Shown: positions 7,466 through 40,830, counted from the first letter of the stretch. The stretch: 40,830 nucleotides of DNA from Jiangellaceae bacterium (GCA_050743145.1 JBOGDU010000115.1:1-40830), one strand, 5' to 3'. Notes: generated by a model from the sequence alone, not told the origin. A program made the numbers and translations.

Positions 7466-9600
7466 GCACTGCCGACCTGAACGACGATCTGGAGCTCGCG
7501 GCGATCTGGATCGCGCTTCACGACGCCACTGAGAGCCGGCGCTTCTACGCCGCTCGGATACTCGCTCGCCATGATGTGAAGTCGCACGTTCGTGACGTCC
7601 AGCGTCTCGTTGATCAGGAACCGTCCGGGAGAGTGCGGTTCTGGCTGTCGGTCGCGCTGGCCAAGGCTGGGTTCTGGTCGGAACTGACGTGGGCGAACTG
7701 GGACCGGATCGACCTCGGCGATCCGGCCACGCTCGCCGGCGACATTCGGGCATGCGGCCCGTTTCCACCCGGCGCGATGGAGGCGATCCGGGACACTGCC
7801 GAGAGGTCGTGGGTCTTCGCCGCCTTCCTTCGCAGTGTGGATGCCCACATCCCAGCGGGTGACACGGCAGCCACGCCGGATGACGGCGACGACACTCCGG
7901 ACTTCGAGCCGACGGGGTCGGCACCGAGGGGCGTCGGATCCAGCGGGGAGACCGAGCTCCCGGACTTCGGAGCCGAGGCGGCCGTCGACGAACCGCCTGA
8001 GCCGGAAACCGCGACCCGCCAGGCGTACCCACGGGTCGACGCGCCGGACGTCGTCGTCGTGGACCACCCGTTCGACGTCATCGTCGGCGTCGCACCGCGT
8101 CGCGACCGGACGCTCGTCGGCACGGGTGGCTTCGACCTCACCGGCGACGAGGTGCGGCTCGAGGTTCTGCTGACTTACGACCCGCAGTCCTTACGCCTCG
8201 ACGGAGACTCCAGGCTCTCGCTGCCGGTCACGCGCGACGATCCCTATCCGTCGGCGACCGTGCGGTTCACCGCCCTCGACGGCGACGACCTCGGGAACGA
8301 ACGTCGCATCGGCGTGCACTACCTGCTCGATGGCGTGGTACGCGCGATTGCGTGGCGGGTCGTCGTAGCGGTCCTGACTCCGGACGAGGTGGCGGGCGCG
8401 CCGAAGCCGCAGACCCGCGAGCGCGAGCTGCTCGACCTGACTTCGCTGGTCGCGGAGGATGCTCCGGACCTCGTGCTCGCCGTGTTCCGGGCCGACTCGG
8501 CGGCGCCGGGCCACTACGTGTGGGCCGCGTATCCCTCGGCGGCCGGTGTCACCGTTCCCGACTCGAAGCGGGCACGGAGTCTCGGCGACCCGCGGAGCTA
8601 CACGACCGACATCGGGCGCGAGGTCGCGATGTCCAACGACCGCTACGCGCTGTATGCCTTCCTCGTCGGAACCGGTCGCACGATCGGCGATGCGGTACCA
8701 CCTGCCATTCAGGCAGCCATCCGCGAGGTCGCACAGCGGCCCGATCCGGCAGAGGCCGCTTCGGTATTGCTGCTCACCGAGGAGCCGTACGTGCCGTGGG
8801 AGCTGGCGGCGTTCACCCCGCCGCTGGCGACGCGGTTCGGCGGCGCGTCTCCGTTCCTCGGCGCGCATGTGGCGCTCGGTCGTTGGCCGCTCACCGAGAG
8901 CCGGCCGAGGCCCGTCCCACGACGGAGCGTCGAGGTGGTGGACCGTGCCGTGCTCACTGCGACGTACGTCGGGGTCACGGGCTGGCCGCAACTGCCGTTC
9001 GCCGAGGCCGAAGCTGCCGCGCTCGCGGAACGCTACCCGCGGACGGCTGTGGTCGAACCCGTCTTCCGTGATGTCCTCGACTGCCTGGGCGGGCAGCCCG
9101 CGACGGACGTGCTGCACGTCGCGCTGCACGGGCGGTTCGACCCGCAGGGCGTCGACCAGGGCCTGGTACTCCTCGCGCCGAAGGCGAACGGCGGCTTCGG
9201 GCCGCAGTACCTCAAGCCGCAGCACGTCGACGCCGTCACGATGCCGCGGCCGACGTTCCTGTTCCTCAACGCCTGCCAGGTCGGGCAGGGCCAGGTGACC
9301 CTCGGCGACTACGCGGGGCTGGCCGCTGCCCTTCTCAGGGCGGGCGCGTCCGGTGTCGTTGCCGCGCTGTGGAACGTCGAGGACGAAGTCGCGAGCCGGG
9401 TCGCGGACGAGTTCTACGCCGCGGTGTACCGCGGCGACGACGCTCCGTCGGTGGCCGAAACGCTCCGACGGATTCGCGCGAACTACACGGCCGACAACGT
9501 CGACACCGGGACGAGCGACAGTGCCACATTCGTGGCCTACCAGCTGTTCGGTCATCCGCGGTTACGGCTGTTATCAGGACAGGGAGACGACGGTGGCTGA
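7462..9600 (+). CDS. CHAT-domain (caspase-fold) protease with an N-terminal HEAT-like region, an acidic Pro-rich linker and a beta-rich middle domain
   Basis: The C-terminal dyad is VLHVALHGRF (His) and TFLFLNACQVGQG (Cys). The N-terminus has ARILARHDV..VRFWLSVALAKAG repeats. No TM segment or signal peptide. RBS GAAGGAA precedes the start. Confidence 0.8.
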   Translation: MSTADLNDDLELAAIWIALHDATESRRFYAARILARHDVKSHVRDVQRLVDQEPSGRVRFWLSVALAKAGFWSELTWANWDRIDLGDPATLAGDIRACGPFPPGAMEAIRDTAERSWVFAAFLRSVDAHIPAGDTAATPDDGDDTPDFEPTGSAPRGVGSSGETELPDFGAEAAVDEPPEPETATRQAYPRVDAPDVVVVDHPFDVIVGVAPRRDRTLVGTGGFDLTGDEVRLEVLLTYDPQSLRLDGDSRLSLPVTRDDPYPSATVRFTALDGDDLGNERRIGVHYLLDGVVRAIAWRVVVAVLTPDEVAGAPKPQTRERELLDLTSLVAEDAPDLVLAVFRADSAAPGHYVWAAYPSAAGVTVPDSKRARSLGDPRSYTTDIGREVAMSNDRYALYAFLVGTGRTIGDAVPPAIQAAIREVAQRPDPAEAASVLLLTEEPYVPWELAAFTPPLATRFGGASPFLGAHVALGRWPLTESRPRPVPRRSVEVVDRAVLTATYVGVTGWPQLPFAEAEAAALAERYPRTAVVEPVFRDVLDCLGGQPATDVLHVALHGRFDPQGVDQGLVLLAPKANGGFGPQYLKPQHVDAVTMPRPTFLFLNACQVGQGQVTLGDYAGLAAALLRAGASGVVAALWNVEDEVASRVADEFYAAVYRGDDAPSVAETLRRIRANYTADNVDTGTSDSATFVAYQLFGHPRLRLLSGQGDDGG

Positions 9601-11083
9601 GCAACTCGACCCCACAGGTGTCGCAGTCTCGATCGGGAGCGTCACGCTGCGCACACCGGGTCTCACCGGAACAGCGGAAGTCCATCACGCCGGCAGTTCC
9701 GGCATGCGTGCTGCTGAGGACGCGACAGCGGAGTTTCTCGAGTGCCTCGAGCGTGCCGGCGTCGAGGAGCAGTTGACAATCGAGATCCGGGACCCCTGGC
9801 AGACCGATGACGACGGAACCGGCAGCAGGGCGGCTGGTGGTGACGGCGACATCGAAGCGGAGGTGCCCGGACCGGGCACCGGCCTGGGGCAGTTCCTGAT
9901 CTTTACCGCGGAGGACGGGACCGTGAGCTGGCACCTGCCGGTGGACGTACCGCGGGACCCGCCGTCAGTGGCCTCCCGTGGTGATGACAGCCGGGTCTAC
10001 CGGGTACCGCGTGCGGTGACGCCGACGGTTCAGCCCGACGGAGCCGGGCAGCGCGGCCTGTTCGGCATCGTCGGGTCGAAACTCCTCAAGGTGCTGGTCT
10101 TTCCCCTCGTGGACCCGGTACTGGGCAAGGTCGGCGACTACTTCGCCTCCCGTTGGGAGCAGCGTCACCGGCAAAACGCGCTGCGGACGTTCCAGCCCGA
10201 GACCTACCGGCAGGCGGCGGGCGACCCGCTGCCTGACTGGTCCGTGCTGGCCGCCGGTCCGGCGCTGCTGTTCGTCCACGGGACGATGAGCCGATCGCAC
10301 ACCGGCTTCCGCCGGATCCCCGAGTCGTTGATCGGGGAGCTTCATTCCCGCTACGAGGGCAGGGTCCTCGCCTTCGACCACTTCACGATCTCGGTCGACC
10401 CCACGGAGAACGTGCGGTGGCTGGCGAAGCAGCTGCCCGACGGCCTCGGCATGACCGTCGACGTGATCGCACATTCCCGCGGCGGCCTGGTCGGCCGGGT
10501 CATGGCCGAGCGCGGCGAGGAACTCGGCCTCGGTGGCATCGTCGACGTACGCAACCTGATCATGGTGGGCACACCGAACGCGGGAACCGTCCTGGCCGAC
10601 CCCGAACACCTCGGCACACTGCTGGACCGGGTGACGAACCTGGTCCAGTTGGTGCCGGACAATCCGGTGACCGACACCGTCGATGTCGTCCTCGCCGTCC
10701 TGAAGCAACTCGCCGTGGGCGCGTTCGGAGGGCTCGGCGGCCTGGTCTCCATGAACCCGAACGGCAGCTATCTGCGGGAGTTCCTCAACCGGCCCGCCAC
10801 GACGGCGAGCACGTACCGAGCCGTCGCCTCGGACTTCGAGCCGGCTCAGGGGTCGCCGCTCGCCCGGACGGCTCGCGACGCGATCATCGACGTCGTGTTC
10901 GGCAGCATCGAGAACGACCTGATCGTGCCGACCGAAGGCGTCCACCACGTCAAGGGTCTCGACGGCTTCGCCCCGGCCGATCCGTTGGTCTTCCCGGCGA
11001 CCGCGGCTGTCGACCACAGCAGTTTCTGGGTCCAGGACGCCTTCGCCCAGAAGGTCCTCCAGTGGCTGCCGTCTCCGGATTGA
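9593..11083 (+). CDS. Alpha/beta-hydrolase (lipase/esterase-like) with a ~190-aa N-terminal domain of unknown function
   Basis: GTG 9593 follows GGGAG (9582-9586) and overlaps the CHAT stop by 8 nt. Motifs are LLFVHGTMS (oxyanion HG), VIAHSRGG (nucleophile elbow), ENDLIVP (Asp) and AVDHSSFW (His). Confidence 0.7.
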   Translation: MAEQLDPTGVAVSIGSVTLRTPGLTGTAEVHHAGSSGMRAAEDATAEFLECLERAGVEEQLTIEIRDPWQTDDDGTGSRAAGGDGDIEAEVPGPGTGLGQFLIFTAEDGTVSWHLPVDVPRDPPSVASRGDDSRVYRVPRAVTPTVQPDGAGQRGLFGIVGSKLLKVLVFPLVDPVLGKVGDYFASRWEQRHRQNALRTFQPETYRQAAGDPLPDWSVLAAGPALLFVHGTMSRSHTGFRRIPESLIGELHSRYEGRVLAFDHFTISVDPTENVRWLAKQLPDGLGMTVDVIAHSRGGLVGRVMAERGEELGLGGIVDVRNLIMVGTPNAGTVLADPEHLGTLLDRVTNLVQLVPDNPVTDTVDVVLAVLKQLAVGAFGGLGGLVSMNPNGSYLREFLNRPATTASTYRAVASDFEPAQGSPLARTARDAIIDVVFGSIENDLIVPTEGVHHVKGLDGFAPADPLVFPATAAVDHSSFWVQDAFAQKVLQWLPSPD

Positions 11084-30479: not shown

Positions 30480-31418
30480 TTGTCGCGGTACGCCGACGCA
30501 TCTCCAGAATCCGGTCCGACGGTGCTGCGGACCCTCTACCGTGACGACGTGCGCCTCCTCGACCTCCTGTCCGACGGCGCTCTGCTGCTGACCCTGTGGT
30601 CAACCGGGCTCGCCATCGGCATGTCGCTCGGCTTGCACGACGTCCTCGCCCCCCTACGGCGGACCGGCCTCGTGGCGCGGGCAGTGATCCTCGATGTGGC
30701 CGTGGTGCCGCTGCTCGTCTGGGCTCTCGTCGAGCTGCTGTCGATCCGCGAGGACTACGCGATCGGACTCCTGCTGGTCGGCTTCGCTTCGGCGGGACCG
30801 CTGGGGGTGAAGGCAGCGCAGATCGCGGGCGCCGACGTCGCCTGCGCTGTATCCCTGGTGGCCGTTCTCGAGGCCGCCAACGCGTTGGTCATCCCGCTGT
30901 GGGTCGGCCTGCTGATGCCGTCCGGCGTCGAGGTTCCGCTCGGTGAGCTGCTGGTCACGCTGGCGGTGCTGGTTCTGCTCCCGCTCGCGGTCGGCATGCT
31001 GGTGCGAGCGCGATCGCCGGGCTCGGCGCGACGCTGGGCCCCCGGAGCCATCATCGTGTCGAACATCTCGCTGGTGGTGGTGATCGCGTTGGTGATCGGC
31101 CAGAACCTCTCCACGCTTGCGGATGCGTTCGCCGCGGGGATAACGCCGGTGATCGTCACGGCAGTGGTCTTCGCGCTGGTGCTCGGTTGGCTCGCCGGTG
31201 GGCCCGACCGGTCCACGCGGGCAGTGGTCGCACTCGTCACCGGAGTGCGGGCAAACGCACTCGCCCTCGGCATCGGGCGAGCCTCGTTCCCGTCGGCCCC
31301 AGAAGTGAGCGTGGCGATCGTGGCGTTCGGTGTCTTCTCGGCACTCCTGCCGCTGGCTGCCGCGTTGGCCGCCCGCCGGATGCTGTCTCAGTCGGTCCGT
31401 GAGGCAACGACTGGATAA
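30480..31418 (+). CDS. Bile acid:sodium symporter (BASS) family transporter
   Basis: A polytopic membrane protein with GLAIGMSL..VILDVAVVPLL..GLLLVGFASAGPLG. The start is uncertain (TTG 30480 or a downstream GTG). Confidence 0.6.
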   Translation: MSRYADASPESGPTVLRTLYRDDVRLLDLLSDGALLLTLWSTGLAIGMSLGLHDVLAPLRRTGLVARAVILDVAVVPLLVWALVELLSIREDYAIGLLLVGFASAGPLGVKAAQIAGADVACAVSLVAVLEAANALVIPLWVGLLMPSGVEVPLGELLVTLAVLVLLPLAVGMLVRARSPGSARRWAPGAIIVSNISLVVVIALVIGQNLSTLADAFAAGITPVIVTAVVFALVLGWLAGGPDRSTRAVVALVTGVRANALALGIGRASFPSAPEVSVAIVAFGVFSALLPLAAALAARRMLSQSVREATTG

Positions 31419-31440
31419 AGCCCTCGGTCGCGCCGCCGTC

Positions 31441-31457
31441 TCATCCCAATCGGATGA
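31441..31457. promoter_or_regulatory. Palindrome copy D: TCATCC-CAATC-GGATGA
   Basis: Intergenic, 62 nt upstream of ATG 31520. It has the same half-sites and spacing as copies A-C, and the right flank is TG. Confidence 0.45.
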
Positions 31458-31519
31458 TGAGCGATCCCATGCCCTCTCTCTAAGTTACGACCTGACCAGC
31501 AAGAACCTGGGAGGAACGG

Positions 31520-31942
31520 ATGGACCAGAACGAGGGCACGACAACGCAGTACAAGGAGCCGAGCAGTGGGGCCGCGGGCCTCGTCGTTTTCGCTGCGATC
31601 TTGATGATCATGATCGGGGTGTTCCATGCCATCTCCGGTCTGGCCGCCTTGTTCGATGACACCTTCTACGTTGCGACGCCGAACTACCTGTTGGAGTTCG
31701 ACGTCACGACCTGGGGATGGATCCACCTGATCGCCGGAATCCTCGTCGCCCTGGCCGGTTTCGCCCTGTTCAGCGGGCAGACGTGGGCCCGGGTCGTCGG
31801 GATCACGCTGGCATTCTTGAGCGCCATCGCCAACTTCGCCTTCATCCCCTACTATCCGGTCTGGTCGCTGCTGATCATCGCCCTCAACGTATTCGTCATC
31901 TGGGCTTTGGCGGCTCATGGCCGCGTGTTGGCGGTCGAGTGA
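31520..31942 (+). CDS. Small integral membrane protein (DUF7144-like, 4 TM)
   Basis: RBS GGGAGGA precedes the start. GLVVFAAILMIMIGVFHAISGLAAL..TWGWIHLIAGILVALAGF..ARVVGITLAFLSAIANF. Confidence 0.6.
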   Translation: MDQNEGTTTQYKEPSSGAAGLVVFAAILMIMIGVFHAISGLAALFDDTFYVATPNYLLEFDVTTWGWIHLIAGILVALAGFALFSGQTWARVVGITLAFLSAIANFAFIPYYPVWSLLIIALNVFVIWALAAHGRVLAVE

Positions 31943-31954
31943 GGAGCGGTTCGT

Positions 31955-34237
31955 CTATTCCTCGAGCAGCCCGATGTCACGCGCCCTGAGCACTGCGTCT
32001 GTCCGCGTGGAGACACTCAGCTTGCGGTAGATGGAGATGGCATGGGTCTTGACGGTGTTGGTCGACACGAAGAGGCGTTCGCCGATCTCGCGGAATGACA
32101 GATGTGTCGGCAGGTATGAGAGCAGGCGCAATTCCGCTGCGGTCAGGGCGGTCGGGCCGGGGACGTCTCCTCCGCGGAGCAGCTCGAGCCGGCGCTGGAC
32201 ACCGCCGAGCTGTTCTCCGAGGGTGCCGTCGTCGGGCAGCCTGCCCACGATCTCGCGCGCGTCGGAGAGGAGCATCCATGCGCCCGCGCGGTCGGAGAGG
32301 GCGAACTGCACCCGTGCAAGCTCGACCATCGTCTGGACGGCGAGCCAGGGGATGGCACGGGTGAGCATCGGCCGTAGTCGTTGAGTCCGTATGACCTCCT
32401 GCCTCGCGCCGGCCACATCGCCGTCGTGGAGCGCGGTCCGGGCCACCGTGGCGAAGGTGATCGAGCTCAGCAGGTACTCCTCGAGATGGCCGGTCTCGAC
32501 GGCAGCACGGGCCCGATCCGACAGGCCGCGAGCCGCGCTCCAGTTGCTGCGGCCCATCGCCAGCAGAGACCGCTCGGCGAGGGCGACCGATGCGGCGGGC
32601 AGGGCTCCGAGACGCTCCGCTGCTTCGACCGCGTCGGCGAGGATCTCGTCGGCCCGATCGAGCTCGCCGGCCAGCAGTGTGCCGACACCGTGCAGGATGA
32701 GCGCCGCAGGTCGCCACGGGCTGCGCGACGACTCGAGGCCGACAGCCACTTCGGCGTCCTTCCGCATCTGCTGCACACCTCGCCGGCAGGTCAGGGCATG
32801 GAGGAGGCGCAGCGTCGACTCGCGTGACGTGCCGCCGTCGTGCGGACCATCCGCGACCGGGCCTCGCTCGGCGAGGTCGGCCCACCATGCCGCCCCGATG
32901 GCGTCGCCGGACAACGCCGCCGACCACCCGGCGATCAGCGCCAGCGAGGGATGCCGCTGCATGACCGTCTCGTCGAGGCGGTCGAGCCAGGCTTGCAAGG
33001 TCTTCAGCCGACCGGTGCGGTTGAGGGGGAACGCCAGTTGCTCGAGCAGCACGGCGGCCCGATCGTGGTCACCTCCGGCGAGGGCGTGGTGAACGGCGTC
33101 TTCGGGCACGTCGTTGGCGTCGAACCAGTCCGCGGCTCTGCGGTGAAGGATCGGCGCCAGGCCGGGTTCGCGCACGTTCAGCTCGGTCACCAGCACGTCG
33201 CGCAACAGATGGTGATAGCGATACCACTCCCGGTGATGATCGAGCGGAACGAGCAGCAGGTTGGAGTTCTCGATCGACCGGAGGACCTGCGCCGACCCGG
33301 TCCGGAGGAGGACGGCGTCGCAGAGTGACGCGGACATCCTGTCGAGAACGGAGGAGACGAGGAGAAAGTGCACCAGATCCTCGGACAGTCCGGTGAGGAT
33401 CTCCGACCGCACGTAATCGGCGACGAACCGGTCGTCTCCGGTGAACGCGATGCCCTGGACGCCGTCGTCTCCGCGGGCCTGCACGGACAGCGCCGCAAGG
33501 TACAGACCGGTCGGCCACCCCTCGGTGCGCTGGGTGAGTTCCGCCACCGCGCCGACGGGCAGGTCGACTCCCGCGTTCCGCAGCAGCGACCGAGCTCCAC
33601 CGGCATCCAACGCCAGATCCGAGGCACCGACCTCGGCCAGTGCGCCACGGGCTCGCAGCCGGGCGAGGGGAAAGTCCGGCACGGTACGCGAGGTCATCAC
33701 CAACTGTGAGCCCGGCGGAAGCCGTTCGGCGAGTTCGGCGACAACGTCGAGGCACGCCCGGTCGTCCAGGACGTGGATGTCGTCGAGGAGCAGGGCCAGC
33801 GGCCTTGACATGGCTGCGAGGGCCGCTACCAGCCGGGGAAGCACGGTCGACATGGCCGAGGCGCCACGCGACGAGAGTGCGGCGAACACGAGCGGGCCGA
33901 GAGGTTCGATGCGGTCGAGGGCGACCGCGATATGGGCCATCAGGACGACCGGGTCGTTGTCGCCCGCGTCGAGCGAGATCCAGGCGATCGGCCGGGAGTC
34001 GGCTTCCTCCCATTCGCCGAGCAAGGTGGTCTTCCCGTATCCCGGCGGGGCGATGACGGCTACGACGCGTGCCTGAAGGCTGCACAGCCGCTCGACCAGG
34101 CCGCGACGAGACACGGTTCCGGCCCGCAGCGGCGGCGGATTGAGCTTGGTTTCGATGACGCCGAACGGCGGGCCGGGCGGAGTGGCCGGCGCTCGCCTGC
34201 GGGTCGGTGTGGCTTGCCGGCGAGGCGAGCCGCTCAC
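31955..34237 (-). CDS. Large ATP-binding LuxR-family (LAL/MalT-like) transcriptional regulator
   Basis: N-terminal P-loop IAPPGYGKTTLL, a long helical/TPR-like middle region, and a C-terminal LuxR HTH LTAAELRLLSYLPTHLSFREIGERLFVSTNTVKTHAISIYRKL. Confidence 0.85.
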   Translation of the reverse strand: MSGSPRRQATPTRRRAPATPPGPPFGVIETKLNPPPLRAGTVSRRGLVERLCSLQARVVAVIAPPGYGKTTLLGEWEEADSRPIAWISLDAGDNDPVVLMAHIAVALDRIEPLGPLVFAALSSRGASAMSTVLPRLVAALAAMSRPLALLLDDIHVLDDRACLDVVAELAERLPPGSQLVMTSRTVPDFPLARLRARGALAEVGASDLALDAGGARSLLRNAGVDLPVGAVAELTQRTEGWPTGLYLAALSVQARGDDGVQGIAFTGDDRFVADYVRSEILTGLSEDLVHFLLVSSVLDRMSASLCDAVLLRTGSAQVLRSIENSNLLLVPLDHHREWYRYHHLLRDVLVTELNVREPGLAPILHRRAADWFDANDVPEDAVHHALAGGDHDRAAVLLEQLAFPLNRTGRLKTLQAWLDRLDETVMQRHPSLALIAGWSAALSGDAIGAAWWADLAERGPVADGPHDGGTSRESTLRLLHALTCRRGVQQMRKDAEVAVGLESSRSPWRPAALILHGVGTLLAGELDRADEILADAVEAAERLGALPAASVALAERSLLAMGRSNWSAARGLSDRARAAVETGHLEEYLLSSITFATVARTALHDGDVAGARQEVIRTQRLRPMLTRAIPWLAVQTMVELARVQFALSDRAGAWMLLSDAREIVGRLPDDGTLGEQLGGVQRRLELLRGGDVPGPTALTAAELRLLSYLPTHLSFREIGERLFVSTNTVKTHAISIYRKLSVSTRTDAVLRARDIGLLEE

Positions 34238-34278
34238 GTGGGCACGGTACCAGGGGCGTCAGGTGCTGAGGGTCCTTT

Positions 34279-34295
34279 TCATCCGGTCCGGATGA
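34279..34295. promoter_or_regulatory. Palindrome copy A: TCATCC-GGTCC-GGATGA
   Basis: A perfect 8+1+8 palindrome in the divergent LuxR/CMD intergenic region. It lies 42 nt from the LuxR start and 85 nt from ATG 34380. Confidence 0.5.
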
Positions 34296-34379
34296 TGCGT
34301 CGCAGCGGCCCATGGCGTGCCATGACCCTTGGGGCGGATCGGCGGCTTCGGCTGGATGCATCTCGACGGGAGTTCGGCG

Positions 34380-34757
34380 ATGGTGTCGAACCACGACCGG
34401 CTGCACCAGTACCGGCTGCGCAGCCTGGCGGTGAACGACGAGGAGTTCATCGACTCGGTCCTGGTGATGCGCCCAGAAGACGTCGAGGCATCGGGTCTCG
34501 ACCCGAAGACCCACGCGCTGGTGCGGCTCGGTGCGCTCCTGGCCCTCGACGCGGCGCCGGCGTCTTACCAGTCGGTCGTCGGAGCCGCCTTCGCCTCCGG
34601 CGCCACCGTGGACGAGATCGTCGGAGTCCTCGTCGCCGTGGCTCCCACGGTGGGTGTTGCCCGGATCGTGTCCGCGGCTCCGGAACTTGCCCTGGCTGTC
34701 GGGTACGACATCGACTCGGCGCTCGAGCGGTTGGACGACGAGAGGAATGAGGCATGA
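34380..34757 (+). CDS. Carboxymuconolactone decarboxylase (AhpD-like) family protein
   Basis: GLDPKTHALVRLGALLALDA..ASGATVDEIVGVLVAVAPTVG. RBS GGGAG is 7 nt before ATG 34380. Its stop overlaps the sulfatase ATG (ATGA). Confidence 0.55.
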   Translation: MVSNHDRLHQYRLRSLAVNDEEFIDSVLVMRPEDVEASGLDPKTHALVRLGALLALDAAPASYQSVVGAAFASGATVDEIVGVLVAVAPTVGVARIVSAAPELALAVGYDIDSALERLDDERNEA

Positions 34758-37129
34758 CGCAGAGTGACTCGATGGGACGGCAGGTCCTTCCGATCCCCCA
34801 CCGTCCCTACCGAGGGCTGGTGACCTACGACGCGAAGGACCCCGACACCACGTTCCCGCCGATCGAGCCGCTACGGCCGCCGCCGGGTGCGCCGAACGTC
34901 CTGCTGGTCCTGCTCGACGACGTCGGCTTCGGCGCCTCCAGCGCGTTCGGTGGCCCGTGCGCGACACCGACCGCGGAGAGACTCGCCGCGAACGGCCTGA
35001 AATTCAACCGCTTTCACACGACGGCACTGTGCTCACCCTCGCGCCAGGCTCTGCTGACGGGGAGGAACCACCACTCGGTCGGGATGGGCGGGATCACCGA
35101 GATCGCCACGTCGGCTCCCGGCTACAACTCGATCCGGCCCAACACGGCGGCTCCGCTCGCCGAGACGCTGAAGTTGAACGGCTACTCGACGGCGCAGTTC
35201 GGCAAGTGCCACGAGGTGCCGGTGTGGGAGACCAGCCCGATGGGCCCGTTCGATGCCTGGCCGTCTGGTGGCGGCGGGTTCGAGTACTTCTACGGCTTCA
35301 TCGGCGGCGAGGCGCACCAGTACTACCCGGCGATCTACGAAGGCACGGTTCCGGTCGAGCCTGAGAAGTCCCCGGCCGAGGGCTACCACTTCATGGCGGA
35401 CATGACGGACAAGGCAATCCGGTGGGTTCGCCAGCAGAAGGCGCTCATGTCTGACAAGCCGTTCTTCATGTACTTCGCCCCGGGCGCGACCCATGCTCCC
35501 CATCACGTGCCGAAGGAGTGGGCGGACAAGTACCGGGGTCGGTTCGACCAAGGCTGGGACCACCTGCGCGAGCAGACGCTCGAGCGGCAGAAGGCGCTCG
35601 GCGTCGTCCCGGCGGACACGGAGCTGACGGCACGGCACGAGGAGATCCCGGCCTGGGACGACATGCCGGACGACCTGAAGCCGGTGCTCAGACGACAGAT
35701 GGAGGTCTACGCAGGCTTCCTCGAGTACACCGACCACCATGTCGGCCGCCTGATCGACTGTCTCGACGACCTCGGGATCCTCGGTGACACGCTGGTGTAC
35801 TACATGATCGGTGACAACGGCGCCTCGGCCGAGGGCACGCTGCACGGCACCTTCAACGAGATGATCAACTTCAACGGCGCCGCAGCCCTGGAGACGCCGT
35901 CATTCATGGCGGCCCGGCTCGACCAGTTCGGAGGGCCCGACTCGTACAACCACTACGCGGTCGGCTGGGCGCACGCGATGAACGCGCCCCTGCAGTGGAC
36001 CAAGCAGGTCGCCTCGCACTGGGGTGGAACCCGCAACGGGACCATCGTCCACTGGCCCGACGGCGTCGGGGCGAAGGGTGAGATCCGCTCCCAGTTCCAC
36101 CACGTCATCGACGTCGCCCCGACCGTCCTCGAGGTCGCCGGCCTGCCGGAGCCCGCATTCGTCAACGGCGTGCAGCAGCAACCGATGCAGGGCGTCAGCA
36201 TGGCCTACTCCTTTGACGACGCCGCGGCGGCCGACCGGCACGAGACGCAGTACTTCGAGATGTTCGGGAACCGCGGGATCTACCACCAGGGGTGGTCGGC
36301 CGTCACGAAGCACAAGACACCGTGGATCCTCGTCGGCGGGGACATGCCCGCCTTCGACGACGACGTCTGGGAGCTGTACGACGCCGACTCCGACTGGAGC
36401 CAGGCGCGCGACCTCTCCAGCGAGTACCCCGAGAGACTGCACGAGCTTCAGCGCCTCTGGCTGGTCGAGGCGACCCGGTACGGCGTGCTTCCGTTGGACG
36501 ACAGGTCCGCTGAACGAGTCAACCCCGAAGCGGCCGGCCGGCCGAGACTGATCAGAGGCAACTCCCAGCTTCTCTTCGGCGGCATGGGGCGGCTGTCGGA
36601 GAACTCGGTGGTGAACATCAAGAACAAGTCCCACTCCGTCACGGCCGAGATCGTCGTCCCGGAGTCGGGTGCCGAAGGCGTGATCGTCGCCCAGGGCGGG
36701 AGTATCGGCGGGTGGAGCCTCTATGCCAGGGAAGGCAAGCCGAAGTACTGCTACAACCTGCTCGGCATCCAGCACTTCTACGTCGAGGGCGACCAGACGA
36801 TCTCCGCGGGCGAGCACCAGGTCCGCGTCGAGTTCGCCTATGACGGTGGTGGCCTCGGAAAAGGTGGGGCGGTATCGCTCTTCCTGGACGGGACCAAGGT
36901 AGGTGAGGGCCGCGTCGACGCGACCGCAGCGATGATCTTCTCGGCCGACGACACATGCGATGTCGGCAGGGAGGGCGGAGCACTCGTGACCGACGACTAC
37001 GGTCCGCACGACAACGCGTTCTCCGGCGAGGTGAACTGGGTCCAGATCGACGTCGGCGAGGACGCAGCCGACGCCGACCACCTGATCACGGCGGAGGAAC
37101 GCCTTCGGGTCGCGATGGCGCGCCAATGA
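34754..37129 (+). CDS. Arylsulfatase (formylglycine-dependent sulfatase, large AtsA type)
   Basis: NVLLVLLDDVGFG and CSPSRQALLTGRNHH (the C-x-P-x-R formylglycine motif). The 791-aa length is similar to the large actinobacterial arylsulfatases. Confidence 0.85.
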   Translation: MTQSDSMGRQVLPIPHRPYRGLVTYDAKDPDTTFPPIEPLRPPPGAPNVLLVLLDDVGFGASSAFGGPCATPTAERLAANGLKFNRFHTTALCSPSRQALLTGRNHHSVGMGGITEIATSAPGYNSIRPNTAAPLAETLKLNGYSTAQFGKCHEVPVWETSPMGPFDAWPSGGGGFEYFYGFIGGEAHQYYPAIYEGTVPVEPEKSPAEGYHFMADMTDKAIRWVRQQKALMSDKPFFMYFAPGATHAPHHVPKEWADKYRGRFDQGWDHLREQTLERQKALGVVPADTELTARHEEIPAWDDMPDDLKPVLRRQMEVYAGFLEYTDHHVGRLIDCLDDLGILGDTLVYYMIGDNGASAEGTLHGTFNEMINFNGAAALETPSFMAARLDQFGGPDSYNHYAVGWAHAMNAPLQWTKQVASHWGGTRNGTIVHWPDGVGAKGEIRSQFHHVIDVAPTVLEVAGLPEPAFVNGVQQQPMQGVSMAYSFDDAAAADRHETQYFEMFGNRGIYHQGWSAVTKHKTPWILVGGDMPAFDDDVWELYDADSDWSQARDLSSEYPERLHELQRLWLVEATRYGVLPLDDRSAERVNPEAAGRPRLIRGNSQLLFGGMGRLSENSVVNIKNKSHSVTAEIVVPESGAEGVIVAQGGSIGGWSLYAREGKPKYCYNLLGIQHFYVEGDQTISAGEHQVRVEFAYDGGGLGKGGAVSLFLDGTKVGEGRVDATAAMIFSADDTCDVGREGGALVTDDYGPHDNAFSGEVNWVQIDVGEDAADADHLITAEERLRVAMARQ

Positions 37130-37157
37130 CCAGCAACCAGCGTGACCTCGGGCTCTT

Positions 37158-37174
37158 TCACCCGGTCCGGGTGA
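37158..37174. promoter_or_regulatory. Palindrome copy B: TCACCC-GGTCC-GGGTGA
   Basis: A perfect 8+1+8 palindrome 79 nt upstream of GTG 37253. Its flanks (cTTTCA....TGATGC) are shared with copy A. Confidence 0.5.
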
Positions 37175-37252
37175 TGCCCTCGATGTCCGCGAGGGTGTCC
37201 CATGTGACAACGGCGGCCGGGCGCTTGTGAGCCGGCCGAAGGAAGGACGACC

Positions 37253-37789
37253 GTGATCGGACCTGTGCAGTTGGTGGTGCTCGGCTTCAGCAAGCCCGAG
37301 TTCAGGGGCGAGATCCTGGCCGAGCTCGAACGGCTCCGAGAGGACGACACGGTTCGATTGATCGACGCACTCGCGGTCTACAAGGACGCCGAAGGCGAGT
37401 TCGCCGCGTTGGAGGTCAGCAACCTTTCGGCGGCGGAGGCGGCGGAGTTCGGGGCCGTTGTCGGCGCTCTTGTCGGGCTCGGTATCGCAGGCGAGGAGGG
37501 CATGGTAGCGGGGGCCGTGTCAGGCGCCGAGGCGGCCGCGGACGGCGTGGACCTGTTCACCGACGAGGACGCGTGGGACGTCCTCGACGAGCTTCCCAAC
37601 GACTCGGCCGCTGCCATCGTGCTCCTCGAGCACCGGTGGGCGATCCCGTTACGCGACGCGATCGTCCGCGCCGGCGGCTTCCCGATCAGCGACGGCTTCA
37701 TCAGTCCGCTCGACCTCGTCGCGACCGGGCTCGCGTCGGCCGCGGAAGCGGAGGCGATGGTGGACACCGCCGGGACAAAGGAGACCTGA
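37253..37789 (+). CDS. DUF6325-like protein (Gly/Ala-rich central segment)
   Basis: IGPVQLVVLGFSKPEFRGEILAELERLREDDTVRLIDALAVYKDAEGE. RBS GAAGGAAGGA precedes GTG 37253. Confidence 0.6.
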   Translation: MIGPVQLVVLGFSKPEFRGEILAELERLREDDTVRLIDALAVYKDAEGEFAALEVSNLSAAEAAEFGAVVGALVGLGIAGEEGMVAGAVSGAEAAADGVDLFTDEDAWDVLDELPNDSAAAIVLLEHRWAIPLRDAIVRAGGFPISDGFISPLDLVATGLASAAEAEAMVDTAGTKET

Positions 37790-37790
37790 C

Positions 37791-37889
37791 GAGGTTCGGA
37801 CCCAGCAGCAGCTCGGCCGGCTCGAGGAGCAAGGCCTGATCACCGACGACGAGTACGAAGCCACGAAGAAGCAGATCCTGGGGATCTGA
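37791..37889 (+). pseudogene. Orphan SHOCT-domain coding segment with no start codon, in the +1 frame relative to the preceding gene
   Basis: Frame 0 reads EVRTQQQLGRLEEQGLITDDEYEATKKQILGI*, with TGA at 37887-37889. There is no ATG, GTG or TTG in this frame for more than 200 nt upstream. Confidence 0.5.
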
Positions 37890-37922
37890 CGCACACACCA
37901 CTACTTTGCGGAGGCCACTGTC

Positions 37923-38306
37923 ATGCCACTCATGGACCTGTTCTGGACGATGCTCTGGTTCTTCTTGTTCATCGCCTGGATCTGGCTGTTGATCTCGATC
38001 GTCACCGACATCTTCCGCAGCGACGAACTGTCCGGCTGGACGAAGGCGCTGTGGATCCTGTTCGTGATCGTCGTGCCATGGCTCGGCGCACTCATCTACC
38101 TGATCGCCCGGGGCGGCTCGATGCAGGAGCGGGCGATGCGCGACGCGACCCAGCGCGAACAGGCGACCCGGCAGTACATCCAGGAGGTCGCCTCCACCGG
38201 TGGGTCCTCCTCCGCGGAGGAGCTGACCAAGCTGGCCCAACTGCGCGAGTCCGGCGTCATCACCACGGCGGAGTTCGAGGCTCAGAAGGCGAAGCTCCTC
38301 GCCTGA
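37923..38306 (+). CDS. PLDc_N membrane domain + SHOCT domain protein
   Basis: LFWTMLWFFLFIAWIWLLISIVTDIF..WTKALWILFVIVVPWLGALIYLI, then the C-terminal LTKLAQLRESGVITTAEFEAQKAKLL. RBS GGAGG lies upstream. Confidence 0.75.
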   Translation: MPLMDLFWTMLWFFLFIAWIWLLISIVTDIFRSDELSGWTKALWILFVIVVPWLGALIYLIARGGSMQERAMRDATQREQATRQYIQEVASTGGSSSAEELTKLAQLRESGVITTAEFEAQKAKLLA

Positions 38307-38346
38307 GACCGTGCCGTGACAAGGCTTGTCCGGGAGGAGGGCAGAC

Positions 38347-38844
38347 ATGGCGACCATGGGCCCAGGCGCGGCCGATGGAACACCGGAGCGTAGCCCGCGC
38401 GCGGAAGTCCGCGTCCGGGCCGGTCGCCTGTGGGGCGGCGGCGTAGCGGTTGCCGTGGTCGCAGCCCTGACAGCGGCCGTCGGCTACTTGATCTGTGAGG
38501 TGGTTCTGGACATCGCGCTGATCCCGCCAGCAGAACTCGTCGGCGGCTCCAGTGATACCGGCTCGGTGTTGGCGCAGTACATAGCCCTCGGTGTGGTTGC
38601 CGCGCTTGTCGCAACGGCCCTCTTGCACTTCCTGTTGATCTCGACGCCGCGCCCGTTCGCGTTCTTCGGCTGGATCATGACACTGGTCACGGTGGCCGCG
38701 GGTGTCCTACCGTTCGCCACGGATCACGACCTGGACTCCCAGGTCGCGTCTGCCGCCGTCCTCGTGGTGCTCGGCGCCGCCATCGGCTCGCTGGTGTCCG
38801 GGGTCGGCGCTCGGTCGCTATTGCGTTCGCGTCCAGGTCCGTGA
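38347..38844 (+). CDS. Integral membrane protein (DUF6069-like, 4 TM)
   Basis: RBS GGGAGGAGGG precedes ATG 38347. There are four hydrophobic segments. Confidence 0.5.
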   Translation: MATMGPGAADGTPERSPRAEVRVRAGRLWGGGVAVAVVAALTAAVGYLICEVVLDIALIPPAELVGGSSDTGSVLAQYIALGVVAALVATALLHFLLISTPRPFAFFGWIMTLVTVAAGVLPFATDHDLDSQVASAAVLVVLGAAIGSLVSGVGARSLLRSRPGP

Positions 38845-38866
38845 GTCACCCGGCCGGCGACGACGT

Positions 38867-38883
38867 TCATCCAGTCCGGATGG
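38867..38883. promoter_or_regulatory. Palindrome copy C: TCATCC-AGTCC-GGATGG
   Basis: Lies 35 nt upstream of GTG 38918. It has two mismatches to copy A, and the GTTCA....TGGTGCC flanks are shared. Confidence 0.4.
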
Positions 38884-38917
38884 TGCCAACCGCAGGCGGT
38901 CGTGTTCGATGTCGTAG

Positions 38918-40240
38918 GTGATCGGGCTCGCCGTTCTTGCCGTGGTTTTCATCGGCTATTCCGTCGTGGCGGCCCGGCTGGCACGTTGGTCGGTCACCGC
39001 GCCGATGGTATTCGTCACGACGGGAGCCCTGATCGGTCCGGAAGGGCTCGGCGCTCTGGACGTCGCGGTCAACGTGGAGGCGGTCAAGGTCATCGCCGAG
39101 GTGACCCTCGCCCTCATCCTCTTCGCAGACGCATCCACGCTCAAATGGAGAGAGGTCCGACTCGACGCCACGCTCCCGGCGCGGCTTCTCTTGATCGGGT
39201 TCCCGCTCACCGTCCTCGCGGGTGTGGTGGCCGGCGTGTGGCTGATTCCGGCAGCCGGCTGGGTAGTGGCGGCGCTCGCTGCCAGCATGCTTGCGCCCAC
39301 GGACGCCGCTCTTGGGCTCGGGGTCTTCACCGACCGATCGGTCCCGGCAGGCATCCGGCGGGCTCTCAATGTCGAGAGCGGCCTCAACGACGGGCTTGCC
39401 ACGCCTCTCGTCACGCTCTTCCTGGCGGCCGCGGTGGCACAGGAGGGGGTTGGACCGGAGGGTTGGCTCGCCGCGGCGGCCCAGGCGCTGGGCCTGGCGA
39501 TCCTGGTTGCCACCCTAGTCGGTGTCGGTGTCGGGCGTTTCTTGGCCGGTGCTCGCCGGCGAGGATGGACGACTGAGATCTCCGACCGGCTGGCGGTGCT
39601 GGCCACGGCGCTGCTGTCCTACGCCGGCGCCGTCGCGATGGGCGGCAACGGTTTCGTAGCCGCGTTCGTGGCCGGGATCCTCTTCGCCGCTGCCTCCGGC
39701 GGGCAGCTGCATGAGGCGACCGAGTTCACCGAGGATCTCGGGCTGATCGCCTCCTTCGTGGTCTGGGCGATCTTCGGCGCACTGCTCGTCGCTCCATTGC
39801 TGACCCATGAGTTCCATCCGTCGGCGATCGTGTACGCGCTGGTCAGCCTCACGCTGGTGCGAATCGTGCCGGTAGCCGTAGCACTGGCGGGCACCGGGCT
39901 GAGACCTGTTTCGATCGCGTTCATGGGGTGGTTCGGCCCGAGAGGACTGGCATCGGTCGTGTTCACGCTGTTGGCGTTCGAGTCGCTCGAGGCCGGCGGA
40001 TTGGCCCCGGAACGGCTGATCGAGGTCGCTACCTGGACCATCCTGCTGTCGATCATCGCCCACGGCGTCACGGCCCGCCCTCTGGCTGCTGCCTACGGTC
40101 GAGCCGCCGCCGGCGCCACGGTCGAGCACCACGAACCCGCGCCGCAGCTCGAGACACGGGTTCCGAGGGGCTTGTCAGCTCGGCGGCCGGAGCGAGGTGT
40201 CAGACGTGAACCTGACGGGTCCGAGCGGCACCCGGGTTGA
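38918..40240 (+). CDS. Cation:proton antiporter (CPA1/NhaP-type Na+/H+ exchanger)
   Basis: About 11-12 TM segments, with LAPTDAALG and ESGLNDGLATPLV motifs. GTG 38918 immediately follows an in-frame TAG. Confidence 0.8.
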   Translation: MIGLAVLAVVFIGYSVVAARLARWSVTAPMVFVTTGALIGPEGLGALDVAVNVEAVKVIAEVTLALILFADASTLKWREVRLDATLPARLLLIGFPLTVLAGVVAGVWLIPAAGWVVAALAASMLAPTDAALGLGVFTDRSVPAGIRRALNVESGLNDGLATPLVTLFLAAAVAQEGVGPEGWLAAAAQALGLAILVATLVGVGVGRFLAGARRRGWTTEISDRLAVLATALLSYAGAVAMGGNGFVAAFVAGILFAAASGGQLHEATEFTEDLGLIASFVVWAIFGALLVAPLLTHEFHPSAIVYALVSLTLVRIVPVAVALAGTGLRPVSIAFMGWFGPRGLASVVFTLLAFESLEAGGLAPERLIEVATWTILLSIIAHGVTARPLAAAYGRAAAGATVEHHEPAPQLETRVPRGLSARRPERGVRREPDGSERHPG

Positions 40241-40317: not shown

Positions 40318-40680
40318 TCAGGACTCACCTGAATCGTCAGCCTGGAGCGCCGTCGTGAGCTCGTCGGTGACGAGAAGGTCCTTGCGTACCTGTCCGGTCC
40401 GGTAGGCGGCGCGGCCGACCATGTGTGCGGCGACGGGAGTCGTCAGCAGTTGCAGGGCCGCGACGACGACGAGCATGCCGACCACACTGCTGTCGCGGAG
40501 CCGGAGCCCCACTCCGAGTAGGACGAACAGCAGGCCGAGGGTCTGCGGCTTCGTCGCGGCGTGCATGCGGCTCAGCAGGTCGGGGAAGCGGACCAGGCCG
40601 ATCGCCGCGGCCAGACCCAGCAGCGCCCCCGCGACCAGGCAGCATGCCGATGCGACGTCGAAGACCGTGTCCCACGTCAC
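40318..40680 (-). CDS. mnhG: Monovalent cation/H+ antiporter subunit G (Mrp/Mnh)
   Basis: LLGLAAAIGLVRFPDLLSRMHAATKPQTLG..LLTTPVAAHMVGRAAY. The GTG start overlaps the upstream stop (GTGA). Confidence 0.85.
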   Translation of the reverse strand: MTWDTVFDVASACCLVAGALLGLAAAIGLVRFPDLLSRMHAATKPQTLGLLFVLLGVGLRLRDSSVVGMLVVVAALQLLTTPVAAHMVGRAAYRTGQVRKDLLVTDELTTALQADDSGES

Positions 40681-40830
40681 AACGGCCCCTCCTCCGTCTC
40701 GGCCACCGGTGGCCGGACCTCACCGGCGGCGAAGCGGGCGACGCTGACCGAGCCGACGAACCCCACGAGCGAGAGAACGACCAGGATCGGCAGCGTGGTC
40801 GCGTGCCGGTTCACCGCCGCCTCGAGCCCG
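40677..40830 (-). CDS. mnhF: Monovalent cation/H+ antiporter subunit F, C-terminal part (5' end outside the window)
   Basis: ..TTLPILVVLSLVGFVGSVSVARFAAGE..*, directly upstream of and overlapping mnhG. Confidence 0.6.
   Translation of the reverse strand, partial: GLEAAVNRHATTLPILVVLSLVGFVGSVSVARFAAGEVRPPVAETEEGPL

Follow-up and report, generated by a model that had tools for sequence, protein, structure and literature searches.

Regulator, predicted target genes and palindromic sites

The window (the whole stretch of DNA that was analysed, 40,830 nucleotides) was matched only by DNA runs of a cave metagenome. It carries a gene for a MalT-like regulator and four copies, spread over 7.4 kb, of a palindrome with the consensus TCAYCC-N5-GGRTGA. 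Genes were assigned to families by using Pfam; sites are given with their agreement with the consensus and, for D, B and C, with the score from a position weight matrix (PWM).

31441–31457, + strand: site D, TCATCCCAATCGGATGA; exact match; 25.2 bits; upstream of the DUF7144 gene; kept in the related genome L001 at the orthologous position
31520–31942, + strand: DUF7144 membrane protein gene, predicted target (ATG 31520; Pfam DUF7144, E = 9e-49)
31955–34237, − strand: MalT-like STAND/LAL regulator gene, 760 aa (Pfam AAA_16, TPR_MalT, GerE)
34279–34295, + strand: site A, TCATCCGGTCCGGATGA; exact match; in the divergent intergenic region between the regulator and CMD genes, oriented to CMD
34380–34757, + strand: carboxymuconolactone decarboxylase (CMD) family gene (ATG 34380; Pfam CMD)
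34754–37129, + strand: sulfatase gene (Pfam Sulfatase)
37158–37174, + strand: site B, TCACCCGGTCCGGGTGA; exact match; 35.3 bits; kept in L001–L003 before the orthologous 178-aa gene
37253–37789, + strand: gene for a 178-aa protein (GTG 37253); no Pfam family above threshold
37923–38306, + strand: PLDc_N+SHOCT protein gene (Pfam)
38326–38844, + strand: DUF6069 protein gene (Pfam)
38867–38883, + strand: site C, TCATCCAGTCCGGATGG; one mismatch; 26.5 bits; upstream of the NhaP gene
38918–40240, + strand: NhaP-type Na+/H+ exchanger gene, predicted target (GTG 38918; Pfam Na_H_Exchanger, E = 4e-38)

The regulator was found to comprise a P-loop NOD, a MalT-type winged helix, TPR_MalT repeats and a GerE/LuxR helix-turn-helix. 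Residues 28–434 were aligned to E. coli MalT (8bob) with E = 1.3e-40; in a BLASTP comparison with E. coli MalT, the N-terminal part was matched at 6e-40 and the helix-turn-helix at 5e-7, the latter alignment not being diagnostic of specificity. With NOD, TPR-like sensor repeats and LuxR DNA-binding domain all present, the protein is, as judged by its sequence, a true MalT-type STAND protein. Its homologues number in the thousands, and Jiangellales are present among the best 120.

The CMD and sulfatase genes, the stop and start codons of which overlap, form one predicted target operon (34380–37129). The 178-aa protein had been assigned to DUF6325 in a first-pass annotation of the sequence; no such match was obtained, the best being a sub-threshold one to DUF1269 (E = 0.05). 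The block to which its gene belongs (37253–38844; 178-aa, PLDc_N+SHOCT and DUF6069) is syntenic in L001–L003. No mal genes were found beside the sites in a Pfam survey of the window, which is at odds with a maltose regulon of the E. coli type.

Occurrence and conservation of the sites

All four copies described in the first-pass annotation were recovered, each intergenic and aimed at a plus-strand gene. In sites A and B the 8+1+8 palindrome is perfect, the flanks reported as common to the sites are real (in the form tT...TGc), and the distances from site end to start codon (63 nt for D, 85 nt for A, 79 nt for B and 35 nt for C) fall within the 35–85 nt given there. With up to one mismatch to TCAYCC-N5-GGRTGA, four matches were counted in the 40.8 kb window against 0.47 expected, a number reached in none of 100 dinucleotide-preserving shuffles. 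At two to three mismatches no enrichment was seen in the window, so these are four sharp sites and no diffuse GC-rich palindrome. When a PWM trained solely on sites from other genomes was applied to the window, the four sites scored 25–38 bits, all in the + orientation (site A, 38.5 bits in the + and 10.7 bits in the − orientation), against a maximum of 10.5 bits in shuffled sequence; a fifth site was not found by this PWM in the 40.8 kb.

Phylogenetic footprinting, envisaged in the first-pass annotation, was carried out on orthologous loci from three Jiangellaceae-type genomes (L001–L003). The sites persist at orthologous positions while their flanks diverge, and they stay while the gene content changes; site A stands out as a conserved island in four genomes (alignment A1). 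An NhaP orthologue in a further locus (L048, 88% identity) is preceded by a perfect site at the same distance of 35 nt.

A metagenome scan by the motif alone, with the regulator left out of the query, returned at least 120 contigs; 98 high-GC and 22 low-GC contigs are among the matches listed. Regulator homologues (35–88% identity) are the most recurrent family adjoining the motif among these matches, carried by 19 of the 98 high-GC contigs and by 14 of the 33 contigs of at least 5 kb; 23 regulator-bearing loci are obtained when the window and L001–L003 are counted in. The motif is associated with the regulator family. Intergenic placement was found for 91 of 108 non-redundant sites. Among the loci listed, members of the DUF7144 family recur downstream of sites in nine, CMD follows sites in 17, and sulfatase occurs in 14. 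Glutamate decarboxylase recurs in related loci, in which DUF1269, DUF2252, class II glutamine amidotransferase and YihY/BrkB genes are also found downstream of sites.

Predicted promoter architecture

Across the 108 non-redundant sites, a −10-like hexamer was found 22–23 nt downstream of the site; the anchored logo reads T-A-n-n-A-T at positions 40–45 from the site start, with T45 in 66 of 106 sites (binomial p = 8e-25) and no mirror signal upstream in the 108 sites. At this distance the site covers the −35 region, as expected of an activator site. A search of 31300–39000 for promoters of the TTGACA/TATAAT type found none. All four window sites were computed to carry a −10-like hexamer within positions 39–46; the usual A at position 2 is missing from those of A, B and C. 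The predicted elements, together with a putative −10 of the regulator gene read from the sequence, are as follows:

31481–31486, + strand: TAAGTT, predicted −10 of the DUF7144 promoter (positions 41–46 from the start of site D); predicted transcription start near 31491
34244–34249, − strand: TACCGT, putative −10 located 6 nt upstream of the GTG of the regulator gene
34318–34323, + strand: TGCCAT, predicted −10 of the CMD–sulfatase promoter (positions 40–45); predicted start near 34329
37198–37203, + strand: TCCCAT, predicted −10 after site B (positions 41–46, by the anchored logo); predicted start near 37208
38905–38910, + strand: TTCGAT, predicted −10 after site C; predicted start 38917/38918, the GTG itself

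In L001, TACCTT is aligned to the predicted −10 of the DUF7144 promoter; in alignment A1, that of the CMD–sulfatase promoter is kept as TGCCAT or TGACAT and that of the regulator gene as TACCGT or TAACGT. As the predicted start after site C coincides with the GTG of the NhaP gene, the NhaP mRNA is probably leaderless; the 35 nt from the end of this site to the start codon fit the 34.4 nt reported for Actinoplanes (PMC7567727). That the putative −10 of the regulator gene lies 6 nt from the GTG suggests that this mRNA may be leaderless too.

The sites are directional (tT-core-TGc), divergent genes bear two back-to-back copies, and each copy would serve one promoter. Site A stands 29 nt from the putative −10 of the regulator gene, against the canonical 22–23 nt; it is aimed at the CMD–sulfatase operon and is off the canonical distance for the regulator's own promoter.

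A probable MalT-type regulon and its alternatives

The motif–regulator pair has already been described in Actinoplanes, and its discovery is not new. In Actinoplanes sp. SE50/110, Droste et al. (2020, PMC7567727) found 17 transcription starts to be preceded by 5'-TCATCC-5nt-GGATGA-3'; the motif overlaps the −35 region, and its 3' end is 34.4 ± 1.0 nt away from the start. In the genetic and transcriptomic data of that report, 42 of 51 genes are expressed at a lower level when malT is deleted, and 39 at a higher level when it is overexpressed. The motif TCATCC-N5-GGATGA is identical in the window, its predicted position over the −35 is equal, and the −10-like elements and start-codon distances of the window agree with it; both organisms carry the gene for a MalT-like LuxR regulator among the motif copies, and many sites precede many short operons with no maltose utilisation genes. 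This likeness lies in motif, position and domains. The cargo overlaps in part. SHOCT is common to Actinoplanes and the window, and families of the related loci (DUF1269, DUF2252, class II glutamine amidotransferase and YihY/BrkB) are listed for Actinoplanes as well (PMC7567727, Tables S3/S4); a second MalT-like paralogue is likewise found both there and in related loci. CMD, sulfatase, DUF7144 and NhaP are not among the genes listed for Actinoplanes, and they differ from its cargo together with DUF6069 (window) and glutamate decarboxylase (related loci). The cluster in the window has four sites and about nine genes, compared with 51 genes in Actinoplanes, and the carriers here are Jiangellaceae-type and other soil and cave actinobacteria rather than Micromonosporaceae.

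With MalT of E. coli and Klebsiella the window regulator shares the STAND architecture, N-terminal homology (E = 1e-40) and a LuxR-type C-terminal domain; it is shorter than E. coli MalT (760 against 901 aa), and none of its predicted targets is a mal gene. The half-site GGATGA is identical to the core GGA(T/G)GA of the E. coli MalT box as quoted in PMC7567727, and the E. coli box and, as predicted, the window sites are both activator sites that replace the −35. E. coli MalT boxes are asymmetric decamers, GGGGA(T/G)GAGG, arranged in repeats (PMC7567727, citing Richet and Raibaud 1989 and Boos and Shuman 1998). The window sites lack this arrangement and have only the GGATGA core in common with it, being 17-bp inverted repeats of two hexamers with a 5-nt spacer, tT/TGc flanks and no G runs; the degenerate position also differs (GGRTGA here, GGAKGA in E. 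coli). The LAL regulators of Streptomyces antibiotic clusters are alike in their N-terminal P-loop NTPase, TPR region and C-terminal LuxR helix-turn-helix, and as cluster-situated activators, a role predicted here. Unlike their clusters, the locus has no biosynthetic gene cluster, its predicted targets being membrane, ion-transport and stress-type genes; with its MalT-type winged helix and TPR_MalT, the regulator is nearer to MalT proper than to the Streptomyces LAL proteins.

The four palindromes are read, with a probability of about 0.8, as promoter sites of the adjacent MalT-like regulator, through which four transcription units are activated. A dimeric-protein site, bound by the adjacent LAL–LuxR regulator and defining a local regulon, had been the reading of the first-pass annotation, and it gains support from the footprinting, the motif–regulator association and the Actinoplanes genetics (PMC7567727). 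By analogy with the latter report, the motif would depend on a MalT-like activator; we infer that in this organism the 31955–34237 protein binds the sites and activates rather than represses. In the proposed mechanism, the 17-bp inverted repeat would be bound by a dimer of the LuxR-type helix-turn-helix domains of this minus-strand-encoded protein, and the two GGRTGA half-sites, with centres 11 bp apart, would both be turned to the same side of the helix. The site would replace the −35 element 22–23 nt upstream of a weak −10, its centre about 43 nt before the transcription start. Switched on by some ligand plus ATP, the regulator would recruit RNA polymerase to the DUF7144, CMD–sulfatase, 178-aa/SHOCT/DUF6069 and NhaP units.

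It is unlikely that another transcription factor, either an unlinked regulator or a MalT-like paralogue, binds the sites and that the adjacent regulator is a mere co-regulated neighbour. Most motif-bearing contigs among the matches listed lack a regulator gene (the majority of these are short), two MalT-like paralogues occur in some loci (L125) and in Actinoplanes (ACSP50_3917), and binding in Actinoplanes is deduced from genetics and transcriptomics (PMC7567727); yet the MalT-like family is the sole regulator among the recurrent neighbours and also the commonest family overall. According to the same report, deletion of the MalT-like gene abolishes expression of the motif region, deletion of the paralogue barely acts, and the half-site is that of the E. 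coli box core. Overlap with the −35 region, where repressors act too, and the nearness of site A to the regulator's own putative promoter would also suit a classical repressor operator, at which a bound dimer blocks RNA polymerase and induction derepresses the genes. This is very unlikely: no consensus −35 is there to occlude in 31300–39000, class II activation typically shows such a fixed and oriented spacing to the −10, and MalT-family STAND regulators are activators. The site position, as read from the sequence, supports an activator over the −35, unlike a classical repressor operator, and in Actinoplanes deletion of the regulator lowers and overexpression raises expression (PMC7567727).

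An RNA hairpin, located either within a 5' untranslated region or at the 3' end of the preceding gene and acting in stability, attenuation or protein binding, had been set aside earlier because of the 1-nt centre. That argument was wrong, as stems of 6–7 bp can form, with folding energies of −6.5 to −10.6 kcal/mol, and the element is oriented relative to the downstream gene; the RNA reading fails on other grounds and is highly improbable. At the sole variable stem position (T-A 30, T-G 37, C-G 28 and non-pairing C-A 13 of 108 sites) there is no covariation (Fisher p = 0.23, n = 108), site A of L001 is itself a C..A combination, the stem is followed by no T run, and no Rfam match for a structured RNA was obtained, even at E ≤ 10. 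Given the −10-like element downstream and the Actinoplanes start 34 nt past the motif (PMC7567727), the motif would lie outside the transcript of its own promoter. A further reading is that the sites have clustered by chance, or are copies of a generic GC-rich or mobile repeat of intergenic DNA that regulates nothing; for it, the G+C content of the genome (68–70%) and the 22 low-GC contigs among the scan matches listed, which look like chance matches, could be cited. Four matches were reached in no shuffle, however, and orthologous conservation, near-exclusive intergenic placement, constant orientation and the fixed −10 distance leave such an origin with almost no probability. The chance-cluster reading is effectively refuted by shuffles, conservation, anchored logo and PWM.

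The novelty is modest: the system is extended to Jiangellaceae and many soil actinobacteria, with different cargo. The Actinoplanes "MalT" system is no peculiarity of Micromonosporaceae, and about nine poorly annotated genes of the window, several with domains of unknown function, are given a candidate regulator and a promoter architecture. The recurring cargo (glutamate decarboxylase, class II glutamine amidotransferase, sulfatase, CMD, Na+/H+ exchangers and small membrane proteins) may hint at a common stress function. Tentatively, and rather doubtfully as a whole, motif and regulator might define a regulon that is widespread among soil actinobacteria, has been shuffled horizontally, and serves in stress (pH, ion or stationary-phase) and not in the use of sugars; the STAND sensor would then have a ligand other than maltotriose, and the tT...TGc flanks would be a composite regulator/sigma-factor contact, hence one promoter per palindrome. 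Phytoactinopolyspora endophytica is a cultivable carrier, so the system is testable. Recurring glutamate decarboxylase, Na+/H+ exchangers, SulP and small membrane proteins (SHOCT, DUF1269 and DUF7144) were noted as pointers to a stress regulon; the arginine deiminase pathway falls in the MalT region of Actinoplanes (PMC7567727).

Motif copies and genes in the window

TCAYCC-N5-GGRTGA was searched with at most one mismatch, and four copies were found in the 40,830-base window (0.47 expected), at 31441 (site D), 34279 (A), 37158 (B) and 38867 (C); this number was reached in 0 of 100 dinucleotide-preserving shuffles. The first-pass annotation was thereby confirmed in its observation of four palindromic sites, and its site sequences and flanks were reproduced for all four copies. 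When two to three mismatches were allowed there was no excess over chance (43 matches in the window, 61 expected), so the four sites are sharp. An extra site was sought upstream of the SBF transporter gene (30480) and across the rest of the window, and none was found. Genes were assigned by gene calling and Pfam searches.

Genes around the motif copies (window coordinates, strand)
30480-31418, +, SBF transporter
31520-31942, +, DUF7144 protein
31955-34237, -, 760-aa regulator (AAA_16, TPR_MalT, GerE)
34380-34757, +, CMD protein
34754-37129, +, sulfatase
37253-37789, +, 178-aa protein, no above-threshold Pfam family
37923-38306, +, PLDc_N and SHOCT protein
38326-38844, +, DUF6069 protein
38918-40240, +, Na+/H+ exchanger (NhaP)

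Most of the gene labels given earlier were borne out; DUF6325 had to be dropped for the 178-aa protein, which gave no match to that family and a weak, sub-threshold DUF1269-like match (E = 0.05). The Actinoplanes region described below includes DUF1269 proteins. A gene for an MnhG/PhaG subunit of an Mrp-type Na+/H+ antiporter (40318-40719, minus strand; Pfam E = 2e-26) lies convergent with NhaP and has no motif site beside it; in L001, L014 and L105 (an orthologous locus and two further loci) such a gene comes after the SHOCT gene.

Residues 28-434 of the regulator can be aligned with structure 8bob of E. coli MalT (E = 1.3e-40), and in BLASTP against E. coli MalT the N-terminal part reached 6e-40 and the helix-turn-helix 5e-7; by these alignments the protein is a genuine MalT relative. 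The helix-turn-helix alignment contains only the generic LuxR-domain pattern T-x-KTH...Y-KL and is uninformative on specificity. Exact-sequence look-ups of the window proteins and a Jiangella aurantiaca homologue gave no match; the sequencing runs matching the window were cave metagenomes only, with no RNA-seq run among them.

The Actinoplanes precedent and conservation in orthologous loci

The motif-regulator pair has already been described, and the window is another member, from an actinobacterial lineage other than that of Actinoplanes and with cargo that differs in part. The MalT-like LuxR regulator ACSP50_3915 of Actinoplanes sp. SE50/110 is reported to activate a 51-gene region, 42 of the 51 genes being down upon its deletion and 39 up upon overexpression, with no effect on maltose genes (Droste et al. 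2020, PMC7567727). 5'-TCATCC-5nt-GGATGA-3' was found there by MEME upstream of 17 mapped transcription starts, its 3' end 34.4 ± 1.0 nt from the start and overlapping the -35 region; it was also present in four other Micromonosporaceae, and its half-site was related by the authors to the E. coli MalT box core GGA(T/G)GA (PMC7567727). The gene table of that study includes SHOCT, three DUF1269, class II glutamine amidotransferase and YihY/BrkB proteins and a second MalT-like paralogue, and for A. missouriensis a DUF2252 protein is given (PMC7567727); these families also occur downstream of sites in the present loci. A literature search found no later paper extending the Actinoplanes system beyond the 2020 paper.

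Orthologous loci were identified by a regulator search of species-representative genomes. Three loci (L001-L003) from MAGs of Jiangellaceae or other Actinomycetota encode regulators of 75-80% identity. The phylogenetic footprinting proposed in the first-pass annotation was borne out in these loci, the motif being kept at orthologous positions: all three carry a site ~42 nt upstream of the regulator start codon and a second ~500 bp beyond, ahead of the gene orthologous to that of the 178-aa protein, and site D ahead of DUF7144 is retained in L001. In intergenic alignments the motif is an invariant island within diverged sequence. Sites remain with their promoters despite changing gene content: the sulfatase gene is missing between CMD and site B in L001-L003, and L001 is without DUF6069 and NhaP.

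Site B directly follows CMD in the orthologous loci; in the window and in the further loci L048 and L078, the sulfatase gene comes after CMD, its start codon overlapping the CMD stop codon, and L002 has a sulfatase of 39% identity at another position, convergently oriented. Cargo genes have evidently been shuffled between promoters. Directly after the DUF6069 orthologue of L003, at the place occupied in the window by site C and NhaP, lies a degenerate two-mismatch site (GCATCCGGTCCGGGAGA, 7506-7522), which may be what remained when the antiporter gene was lost.

Promoter geometry and nature of the site

An anchored alignment was prepared from 108 non-redundant, oriented sites of the listed loci. 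Half-sites are spaced 11 bp centre to centre. The flanks are directional (5' tT, 3' TGc), also in secondary sites unselected by the scan pattern, and divergent gene pairs carry two back-to-back copies 25-70 bp apart (at least a dozen cases). A -10-like hexamer, T-A-n-n-A-T, was found at positions 40-45, with T45 in 66 of 106 sites against 17% T content (p = 8e-25) and a sharp peak of AT dinucleotides; no mirror signal was present on the opposite side of the motif in the 108 sites. The hexamers predicted in the window (positions 39-46) are TAAGTT (D), TGCCAT (A), TCCCAT (B) and TTCGAT (C). By a crude coding test 91 of the 108 sites are intergenic.

A transcription start 6-7 nt past the hexamer would place the motif centre near -43, so that the motif would cover the -35 region, as class II activator sites do. 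From the -10 position, which was found independently, the start is predicted 34-35 nt after the motif, in agreement with the Actinoplanes value. No sigma-70 consensus (TTGACA-type) promoter was found in 31300-39000, which fits activator-dependent promoters and does not positively give the promoter location. Two other promoter assignments were rejected: a SigB/SigF-type promoter (GTTT...GGGTA), as only ~8 nt separate the conserved blocks and there is a distinct -10-like element 22-23 nt downstream, and GATGAT within the motif as -10 element, as site B and many others have GGGTGA.

The first-pass annotation had excluded an RNA hairpin because of the 1-nt centre. This argument is invalid, since stems of 6-7 bp are predicted to fold at -6.5 to -10.6 kcal/mol; a palindrome acting as RNA hairpin is nevertheless ruled out by other evidence. 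The sole variable stem position is without covariation (T-A 30, T-G 37, C-G 28, C-A 13; Fisher p = 0.23), Rfam searches were negative both at gathering thresholds and at E <= 10, the stem is not followed by a T-run, and the -10 element sits downstream of the palindrome. Binding of a dimeric protein, the adjacent LuxR regulator, is supported as a prediction by site conservation, association with the regulator family and the Actinoplanes precedent. From the alignment, this dimer site would more precisely be a directional activator site that covers the -35 region, each promoter having its own copy.

Site A does lie in the divergent promoter region of the regulator, as had been noted, and points at CMD-sulfatase. 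Its score is 38.5 bits in the direction of CMD and 10.7 bits in that of the regulator, whose conserved putative -10 (TACCGT) is 29 nt away as against the canonical 22-23 nt; the site is therefore assigned primarily to the CMD-sulfatase promoter, and autoregulation through it is uncertain. The NhaP GTG is 35 nt after site C, so its mRNA is probably leaderless. TANNNT-like hexamers end 6-7 nt before the GTG codons of the regulator (34237-34249, minus strand) and NhaP (38905-38918), and both genes appear leaderless.

Wider distribution and neighbouring gene families

Metagenome contigs were scanned for exact matches to the 20-mer TTCAYCCNGTCCGGRTGATG, which was found on at least 120 contigs; 98 high-GC and 22 low-GC contigs were among the matches listed. 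The low-GC contigs (37-59% G+C; including L007, L022, L060, L083, L093, L100, L113 and L123) are without related genes and probably represent chance matches, the collection being very large. On many contigs there are several further sites not forced by the scan pattern. All coding-like ORFs of the loci were clustered, and the regulator's own family was the most recurrent among the matches listed.

Gene families recurring in the loci (ORF clustering)
MalT-like regulator: at least 23 loci (window and L001-L003 included)
CMD: at least 17
178-aa protein family: at least 15
Sulfatase: at least 14
PLP-dependent (glutamate-type) decarboxylase: at least 13
Class II glutamine amidotransferase: at least 11
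DUF7144: at least 9
SHOCT: at least 9
SulP: at least 6

Among the matches listed, a regulator homologue was present on 19 of the 98 high-GC contigs, which had been chosen by motif alone, and on 14 of 33 contigs of at least 5 kb; no second recurrent regulator family was found among the neighbours. The lowest homologue identities among the loci are 35-49%. In the cultured isolate Phytoactinopolyspora endophytica (L127) a 60%-identical regulator is surrounded by six sites and by Pyridoxal_deC decarboxylase, DUF7144 and SHOCT genes.

The decarboxylase, Na+/H+ exchangers and small membrane proteins recur near sites, and an arginine deiminase pathway is reported in the Actinoplanes region (PMC7567727); together they hint, speculatively, at a role in pH, ion or stationary-phase stress.

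In L127 (with sites at 9712, 9913 and 12368 among others) most sites are of the TCACCC-N5-GGGTGA variant, and several are without the tT/TGc flanks; two sites precede the regulator gene itself, so autoregulation may differ between lineages. Decarboxylase and amidotransferase form a recurrent divergent pair with back-to-back sites between them (at least 11-13 contigs, among them L016, L043, L051, L056, L057, L096, L099, L101, L110 and L114); this amidotransferase family also occurs in the Actinoplanes MalT region. On another contig (L125:991-5633), two MalT-like paralogues with 47% and 49% identity to the window regulator are encoded divergently, with a site between them pointing at one of the two; the pair resembles ACSP50_3915 and ACSP50_3917 of Actinoplanes.
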